Positions 6,211 to 6,372 of a stretch of 20,586 nucleotides of DNA are shown here, piece by piece (position 1 is the stretch's first letter; each line of letters starts with the position of its first letter). Both the position numbers and the translations under genes were made by a program. The notes under the pieces were generated by a model that searched no databases, had not been told where the DNA came from, and saw only the letters and a program-made list of their open reading frames with translations. The DNA lies in IMG/VR virus record IMGVR_UViG_2563366976_000012, positions 1 to 20,586 of that record. One strand, 5' to 3'. This DNA is from a virus (taxonomy: Duplodnaviria; Heunggongvirae; Uroviricota; Caudoviricetes).

Positions 6211-6307
6211 TGGTTTCTCCACAAATTTTTATCCACGAGCGGGACTGCACTCCCTTTTCGTTGATGCAGGATGAACTTACTGCGATTTTTAATAGTTATC
6301 AAGGATA

Positions 6308-6327
6308 CACTGTTCATAAATACAGTA
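6308..6327. promoter_or_regulatory. LexA (SOS) box-like palindrome upstream of the KilA-N gene
   Basis: caCTGTtcataaatACAGta: CTGT-N8-ACAG with AT-rich spacer, against consensus taCTGTatatatatACAGta. Lies in the 162-bp gap between RusA and the KilA-N gene, about 100 bp upstream of the KilA-N start. Confidence 0.6.
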
Positions 6328-6372
6328 TCTTTAACGAGGTAATACCCAAATTTAGGGTGTTGCTCAATTCCG

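Follow-up and report, generated by a model that had tools for sequence, protein, structure and literature searches.

A probable LexA operator on a mosaic cassette upstream of a KilA-N regulator gene in an SfIV-type lambdoid prophage

The one substantial intergenic gap in the rightward early operon of a lambdoid prophage contains a strong LexA-type SOS box adjacent to a promoter-like element, and the arrangement suggests that this site is probably, though by no means certainly, a real SOS operator acting on a LexA-controlled promoter for the downstream KilA-N gene. The window, by which we mean the entire 20,586-nucleotide stretch of DNA that was analysed, represents such a prophage and shows 98-99% identity to Shigella phage SfIV and Escherichia phage PhiR49_1 in the region studied. 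LexA-controlled prophage genes are a known theme, of which this locus is a new, allele-specific example. The product of the downstream gene, which the sequence-only reading had described as antirepressor-like, is by profile and fold comparisons a two-domain DNA-binding regulator and not a recognizable antirepressor. The less expected features of the locus are a neighboring paralog of LexA, termed LexN, and a conserved leader hairpin with a UGCAG loop.

The rightward early operon lies on the minus strand of the window and runs in the order cro, two Ash/Rha genes, an O-like replication gene, a PerC-like gene, Dam, LexN, RusA, the gap, KilA-N, DUF968/HNH and Q (Table 1), in a phage that has no N gene. 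The gap (6211-6372) extends over 162 bp from the end of rusA at 6373 to the KilA-N start codon, which is the ATG at 6210 rather than 6211 and is preceded by GGAG at 6220-6217. It belongs to the nin region, some 1.9 kb beyond the replication genes. From Q (4009) to cro (12054), no other neighboring minus-strand genes are separated by more than 60 bp, in keeping with the earlier claim that this is the sole sizeable gap of the operon. The two Ash/Rha genes (9170-10051 and 10048-10887, both on the minus strand) are adjacent paralogs, each combining an Ash with a Rha (Phage_pRha) domain; annotations frequently label proteins of the Rha type as antirepressors or regulators.

Table 1. Features of the early region of the prophage (window coordinates).
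Feature	Position	Strand	Evidence or remark
Late antiterminator Q	4009-4338	-	domain search; 59 bp downstream of DUF968
DUF968/HNH (YdfU-like) gene	4398-5393	-	domain search; adjoins KilA-N end
KilA-N gene, 271 aa	5395-6210	-	KilA-N/APSES domain 10-114, helical linker 119-157, MerR/Xis-like winged helix ~181-270
Mosaic cassette, box-bearing allele	5695-6396	-	alignments; last ~6 rusA codons with hairpin, whole gap, KilA-N codons 1-~172
UGCAG leader hairpin	6230-6265	-	ACGA-aaa-GGGA [GUGCAG] UCCC-gc-UCGU; ~20 nt upstream of KilA-N Shine-Dalgarno
Best sigma-70-like promoter in gap	6274-6302	-	-35 TTGATA (6302-6297), 17-bp spacer, -10 TAAGTT (6279-6274)
LexA-type SOS box CACTGTTCATAAATACAGTA	6308-6327		motif matrix, 20.8 bits; CTGT-N8-ACAG core 6310-6325
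rusA, Holliday-junction resolvase	6373-6768	-	PF05866; upstream of gap
8-bp inverted repeat CGAGTTGC-aaatta-GCAACTCG	6377-6398	-	just upstream of rusA stop; left edge of cassette
LexN, 108-aa LexA paralog	6765-7091	-	PF01726, residues 1-65; N-terminal winged-helix DNA-binding domain only
Dam	7088-7774	-	
cro	11854-12054	-	
cI repressor, HTH + S24 peptidase	12152-12778	+	PF00717, E 1.6e-27
Second UGCAG hairpin	14153-14188	+	ACCGACC-UUGCAG-GGUCGGU; leftward early arm, upstream of yfdP-like gene (ATG 14199)

The box, caCTGTtcataaatACAGta, is found exactly at the positions and with the sequence first assigned to it, and lies 98-117 nt upstream of the KilA-N ATG, close to the distance of about 100 bp originally quoted. 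Its 16-bp palindromic core, CTGT-N8-ACAG, is an exact match; by itself the bare core is not significant, with one match in the window against 0.31 expected and at least one match in 29 of 100 shuffles. The full 20-mer, in contrast, is the top-scoring site of the window with a LexA position weight matrix, which upholds its described nearness to the LexA consensus, and its score of 20.8 bits, an approximate value given by a matrix compiled from 28 SOS boxes of E. coli, falls in the middle of the range of these true boxes (12-26 bits). None of 300 first-order Markov randomizations of the window reached this score, their maximum being 18.9. Throughout the complete 45-kb genome of PhiR49_1 the box is the sole site above 11 bits (21.4 bits versus 10.8 for the next best), and the SfIV copy, TACTGTTCATAAATACAGTA, which differs by a single flank base, is nearer to the consensus at 23.1 bits. 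The site resembles the chromosomal SOS boxes of E. coli, for instance those of hokE (CACTGTATAAATAAACAGCT) and umuDC (TACTGTATATAAAAACAGTA), in its CTGT-N8-ACAG palindrome, AT-rich spacer and matrix score, but it is located upstream of a -35 hexamer, whereas the chromosomal boxes cover the -35, the -10 or the transcription start. The second-best LexA-like site of the window, TGCTGGATAAACATCCACTT (2309-2328; 15.7 bits), has one half-site spoiled (CCAC), lies inside an ORF (1992-2705, minus strand) and is probably a chance occurrence.

The promoter-like element TTGATA-17-TAAGTT that had been reported just past the box is indeed present there on the minus strand (6302-6274). It shows 8 of 12 consensus matches and falls below the threshold of a consensus promoter scan; by a simple hexamer/spacer score it is the best of the gap, its 11.4 bits ranking in the top 5% of the 216-nt windows of the phage. 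The box ends 5 bp upstream of its -35 hexamer. Transcription is predicted to start near 6267, which would place the box at about -41 to -60, so that it abuts the -35 hexamer and the core promoter is not covered, a position that is unusual for LexA repression. Two alternative promoters that overlap the box, TTGAGC-17-TATTAC (start about 6332; 6.8 bits) and TTGGGT-16-TACTGT (6.5 bits), were set aside as average for the phage. Only weak terminator-like sites occur between the KilA-N promoter and Q, and Q could be within reach of transcripts from the box-adjacent promoter. An upstream ORF of 36 codons (6207-6316, minus strand), with its ATG (6316) inside the box and an ATGA end overlapping the KilA-N start, was likewise rejected as a gene: it has no Shine-Dalgarno, an 11-nt indel variant breaks its frame, the corresponding sequence in sister alleles is in another frame or fused, and the region displays RNA-type covariation instead of codon conservation. 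In some relatives the equivalent frame is fused to KilA-N, resulting in gene calls of 298-301 aa.

DNA alignment with SfII and mEp460, together with comparison of the KilA-N protein with that of SfII, reveals the edges of a mosaic cassette. On the left, homology ends after 6397, about six codons ahead of the rusA stop; on the right, the break falls at KilA-N residue 173, from where the protein is 100% identical to its SfII counterpart and before which it is diverged. The box is therefore part of a cassette some 700 bp long, which comprises the hairpin at the end of rusA, the box, the promoter and the diverged KilA-N domain. The rusA-end inverted repeat is stable (-13.5 kcal/mol, z -5.05), but was rejected as an intrinsic terminator, having no U tract on the minus strand and appearing terminator-like only on the plus strand.

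The box-bearing gap was recovered from 5 of 50,697 phage records, including SfIV and PhiR49_1, from 186 of 5,426 complete E. coli genomes and from 41 IMG/VR contigs, always in near-identical copies. The majority allele, typified by SfII, Stx2a_WGPS2, mEp460 and many Stx2c phages, has a rusA-KilA-N spacing of 19 bp and no box; since most relatives thus have neither gap nor box, the KilA-N gene works without LexA control. The nearest diverged relatives of the cassette, from Citrobacter, Kluyvera and a viral contig, show 74-80% protein identity, have a gap of 89-160 bp and retain only a half-box around a shared ATGAACAGTG; the decayed site in Kluyvera reads GGGTGTATGCATGAACAGTG and scores 7.3 bits, and that of the viral contig (L126) is likewise decayed. 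Given that the box is seen only in near-identical copies and that the sisters have a decayed half-box, LexA control, if real, is best regarded as a lineage-specific gain, or as a feature lost in the sisters, and not as a family trait. As all box-bearing copies are 99-100% identical, phylogenetic footprinting of the box is impossible; the copies of the gap show no substitutions in the box and promoter versus four variable sites and one 11-nt indel elsewhere, a difference that is not significant.

LexA-like sites nevertheless recur in related phages. The 250 bp upstream of KilA-N orthologs, sampled as one genome per species, contain 5 LexA-like matches of at least 13 bits in 18 kb, whereas 456 kb from other parts of these loci contain 10; the highest-scoring upstream match is an Edwardsiella box, GGCTGTTTTAATATCCAGTA, at -83 (19.0 bits). 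SfII (NC_021857.1) has a near-consensus SOS box, TACTGTTTTTATATACAGTA (29167-29186; 26.0 bits), inside the cI coding sequence, where it coincides with codons of the linker (NTVYKNSN) that joins HTH and S24; no other strong LexA-like site occurs in the 41-kb genome. In mEp460 (mEp460_4F5), a late-region gene for a DNA adenine methyltransferase, which immediately precedes the holin, has the box TACTGTAAAAATAAACAGTG at its start (13701-13720; 22.5 bits), and Kluyvera and Rosenbergiella loci contain an identical site (+3164 from the KilA-N start in L007 and +2950 in L015); the relatives with this box have no box at KilA-N. Hence, each of the three scanned phages, SfIV, SfII and mEp460, has one strong LexA-type box, respectively at kilA, inside cI and at the late methylase. 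Because relatives without the KilA-N box hold one strong box elsewhere, a LexA input seems to be a recurring trait of this phage group, at varying positions.

The above observations can be accommodated in the following scenario. The box may have arrived with the cassette, or been completed on it, in one SfIV/PhiR49_1-type prophage lineage. In the lysogen, cI would silence the rightward early operon, and LexA at 6308-6327 would hold the AT-rich segment from -41 to -60 and hinder RNA polymerase at the weak internal promoter, thereby keeping it off. On DNA damage LexA is cleaved faster, earlier and at lower doses than lambda-type repressors. Its cleavage would permit a cI-independent transcript from about 6267, which would open at the base of the UGCAG hairpin and encode KilA-N, DUF968 and possibly Q. 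Of this, the analysis shows how strong and unique the site is, the presence of the promoter-like element, the build of the cassette and the domains of the protein; we infer that LexA binds, where transcription starts, that SOS induces the promoter and that prophage induction is affected at all. If LexA does control the promoter, about 3% of sequenced E. coli/Shigella strains, as well as the serotype-converting phage SfIV, carry a damage-responsive KilA-N-DUF968-Q route that bypasses cI. In view of the earlier cleavage of LexA, such a route could shift the threshold or timing of induction, or could lead to production of a DNA-binding regulator in lysogens that are mildly stressed but not induced. 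The natural alleles with the box (SfIV) and without it (SfII) offer a ready comparison.

Among previously described systems, p95-tum of coliphage 186, a P2-like phage, encodes a LexA-repressed antirepressor, Tum, which is small and acts on a non-cleavable CI. The present locus is similar in placing one host LexA operator at a prophage gene outside the immunity region; unlike Tum, however, the protein encoded here is a KilA-N protein that has no sequence or fold relationship to it, as judged by profiles and fold. The Salmonella prophages Gifsy-1, -2 and -3 contain LexA-controlled dinI-antirepressor loci (Lemire, Figueroa-Bossi and Bossi 2011, PMC3121763). As in the present case, the nin region of a lambdoid prophage contains a LexA box with a promoter, located 1-2 kb beyond the replication genes and following a palindromic hairpin; expression is independent of the immunity repressor and dependent on host SOS (PMC3121763), as by analogy would also be the case here. 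The Gifsy loci, in contrast, encode a DinI homolog and the small antirepressors GfoA, GfhA and GftA (PMC3121763), rather than a 271-aa protein with KilA-N and winged-helix domains that profiles and fold set apart from them, and the hairpin at the end of rusA has no U tract. They also serve repressors that are unable to cleave themselves, unlike the S24-type cI of the present prophage (PMC3121763).

The KilA-N assignment of the downstream gene is borne out by a match to PF04383 above the gathering score (E 1.3e-15) and by an APSES-like fold, and the protein belongs to phrog_129 of PHROGs, which is labeled "transcriptional regulator". In Pfam the whole protein retrieves only PF04383, with no ANT or Bro-N domain such as would place it with the ANT/KilAC or Bro-type antirepressors (P22 Ant, P1 Ant), and its C-terminal 157 residues match no family even at E <=10, including ANT (PF03374). 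It had no match in NCBIfam or in a sequence search of solved structures, and across Pfam, PHROGs and NCBIfam there was no match to an ANT, Bro, Tum or Gifsy-type family. A Foldseek comparison with the PDB gave only weak winged-helix matches (E >0.3). The fold, with its APSES and winged-helix parts, consists of two domains of the DNA-binding type, and in combining KilA-N with a C-terminal MerR/Xis-like winged helix, at a fixed place between rusA and DUF968-Q, it is unlike other KilA-N/APSES proteins such as P1 KilA and yeast Mbp1. It represents a separate, uncharacterized subfamily (phrog_129), and the antirepressor label that had been attached to it is unsupported.

The S24-type cI described in the sequence-only reading is also present. 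Its S24 domain is complete, with VQAG, GDSM and VKKL at the cleavage-site and catalytic motifs, which are lambda-like; given these motifs, cI should cleave itself, and it looks self-cleavable. Two SOS inputs, through the LexA box and through cI, are possible for the prophage, as had been proposed. Judged against the description of the Gifsy modules (PMC3121763), the locus is similar in that a hairpin is followed by a LexA box and a promoter belonging to it, at a distance from the immunity region; its repressor, however, retains the self-cleavage domain, and only the KilA-N and "transcriptional regulator" labels attach to the product, rather than any known antirepressor family. Literature searches on KilA-N with LexA and antirepressor, on antirepressors of Stx phages with SOS boxes, and on ECOR13 prophages retrieved nothing on this locus, and the SfIV genome paper does not mention the box (PMC3851460).

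LexN, encoded two genes upstream of KilA-N, consists of the LexA-type N-terminal domain followed by a 40-aa tail. It aligns with the E. coli LexA N-terminal domain (1lea/3jso) at E 6e-16, covers only positions 1-91 of TIGR00498 and has no S24 match, making it a truncated LexA homolog. Its recognition helix reads RSVNAAVEHLRAL, as against RSPNAAEEHLKAL in LexA, and the family alignment indicates retention of S39, N41, A42, A43, E45, H46, L47 and the RGI wing, with position 45 being variable across the family. The order methylase-LexN-RusA-KilA-N-DUF968-Q is kept in E. coli, Shigella, Citrobacter, Kluyvera and Cedecea, whether the box is present or not. These features suggest that LexN may be a non-cleavable LexA surrogate. 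The only characterized protein that we found to consist of a LexA N-terminal domain alone is gp6 of GIL01, a truncated LexA homolog that acts together with host LexA at promoter P3 and activates a late promoter from -43.5, beside host-LexA boxes, and whose target sequence differs from that of host LexA (PMC6182141). The two phages are alike in encoding such a protein and in having host-LexA boxes, putative in the present case, at a lytic promoter, and the box described here is centered near -50, compared with -43.5 for the gp6 site (PMC6182141). GIL01, however, is a Gram-positive tectivirus whose gp6 binds its own palindrome and not the host SOS box (PMC6182141), whereas LexN largely keeps LexA-like recognition residues and occurs also in phages without the box.

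Several lines of evidence favor host LexA as the ligand of the box: its strength and uniqueness, with the SfIV copy still nearer to the consensus; its location in the only real gap of the operon, next to the best promoter candidate; the hairpin-box-promoter layout in the nin region, which mirrors a proven Gifsy locus (PMC3121763); the recurrence of LexA-like boxes before KilA-N orthologs in other genera; the single strong boxes elsewhere in related phages; and the UV-inducibility of SfIV (PMC3851460). Against this reading stand the position of the box upstream of the -35 rather than over the core promoter, the weakness of that promoter, the near-identity of all copies with the insignificant substitution pattern in the gap, the decayed boxes of the nearest sisters, the ability of most relatives to manage without the gap, and the approximate nature of the matrix scores. 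Some of these points would also fit a palindrome that mosaic recombination left behind, without selective value, in AT-rich DNA between genes, and which LexA may bind without regulating anything: a bare core has an expectation of 0.31 per window, the sister half-boxes share ATGAACAGTG, so that a full site needs few mutations, purifying selection is not measurable, and the promoter is weak. We consider this improbable, since a full 20-mer far beyond chance expectation and unique in 45 kb, its placement next to the best promoter candidate in the operon's single gap, the enrichment upstream of orthologs and the single strong boxes of relatives all argue for a selected LexA input. Even less credible is the original proposal that KilA-N is a LexA-repressed antirepressor that inactivates cI and so supplies a second SOS input beside cI self-cleavage. 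A LexA box beside a promoter ahead of the gene, the LexA-controlled antirepressors of Gifsy at the same genomic position (PMC3121763) and one weak BFVD fold match labeled "antirepressor" (E 3e-3) speak for it, but the family searches and the fold of two DNA-binding-type domains do not, known systems serve non-cleavable repressors whereas the cI here is S24-intact, and the gene lies inside the early lytic operon in most relatives. Moreover, the C-terminal half of KilA-N is identical in SfII and SfIV, whose cI proteins share very limited identity (PMC3851460), which argues against a repressor-specific antirepressor.

A different possibility is that the box is also, or instead, an operator of the uncleavable LexN, which, made from the rightward early operon after induction, would re-repress the KilA-N promoter, yielding an SOS pulse, or activate it from about -50. 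The retained recognition-helix residues and RGI wing, the similarity to the LexA N-terminal domain, the conserved position of the gene two genes upstream, and the single strong LexA-type boxes of SfIV, SfII and mEp460 favor this idea, gp6 provides an experimental precedent for a truncated LexA homolog activating transcription (PMC6182141), and a box centered near -50 is placed no less suitably for activation than for repression. We nevertheless view it as doubtful: LexN is equally present in many phages without the box, and the latter is therefore not its primary or universal target; it has no LexA dimerization domain; and position 45 varies within the family, while gp6 recognizes a sequence other than that of host LexA (PMC6182141). 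A bolder version, which we rate as rather unlikely, would make the box a shared operator of host LexA and LexN, with the enterobacterial lambdoid phages of this group each placing one such operator at a differing control point, namely the KilA-N promoter in the present prophage, the interior of cI in SfII and the start of the late-region methylase in mEp460. On this speculative scheme, LexN produced early in the lytic cycle would replace cleaved LexA, re-repress or activate the operator and perhaps shut down the host SOS regulon; if true, it would amount to a phage LexA surrogate circuit in the best-studied phage group, until now described only for a Gram-positive tectivirus.

Control by host LexA remains our preferred reading of the box, but LexN and the UGCAG hairpin are probably the more worthwhile subjects of study because both are conserved in many genera and uncharacterized. 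The hairpin has an invariant UGCAG loop and covarying stems, and is seen in many enterobacterial genera. All five inner pairs show compensatory changes, and 88.6% of cells are paired versus 52% in shuffles and 24-53% in slid controls, figures obtained with sequences picked by eye, which favors the structure. A covariance model scores the KilA-N copy at 27.5 bits and the copy before the yfdP-like gene at 25.7 bits, the SfIV version of the latter carrying a compensatory C-G to U-A change. At E <=0.001 the model finds two copies each in the window, SfIV, PhiR49_1 and mEp460, before KilA-N and the yfdP-like gene, and in SfII, which is devoid of yfdP, only one; a third, weaker match is seen in PhiR49_1 (19.8 bits, E 0.006). 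Proteus, Morganella and Providencia have a hairpin at the same place with a variant loop, and an Rfam search of 5800-7200 matched no family. As the phage is without an N gene and both early arms contain a copy, a role in antitermination, like that of a nut or put site, was considered. This was rated less likely than a gene-linked leader element, given that the copies lie kilobases from the promoters and always 5-40 nt before a Shine-Dalgarno, and that SfII, having no yfdP, lacks the second copy. The hairpin is thus inferred to be a leader element linked to its gene, for example a translational operator or a stability or processing site. In seven box-bearing alleles that are otherwise identical, an 11-nt leader deletion (CTCGTGGATAA, equivalent to 6239-6229 of the window) removes the 3' half of the outer stem and brings the box closer to the ATG, from -117 to -106. 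Both hairpins are also accompanied by a perfectly repeated 16-nt sequence, TTTGTGGAGAAACCAA: at KilA-N (6225-6210, minus strand) it holds the Shine-Dalgarno and follows the hairpin, and in the leftward arm (14146-14161, plus strand) it precedes it.
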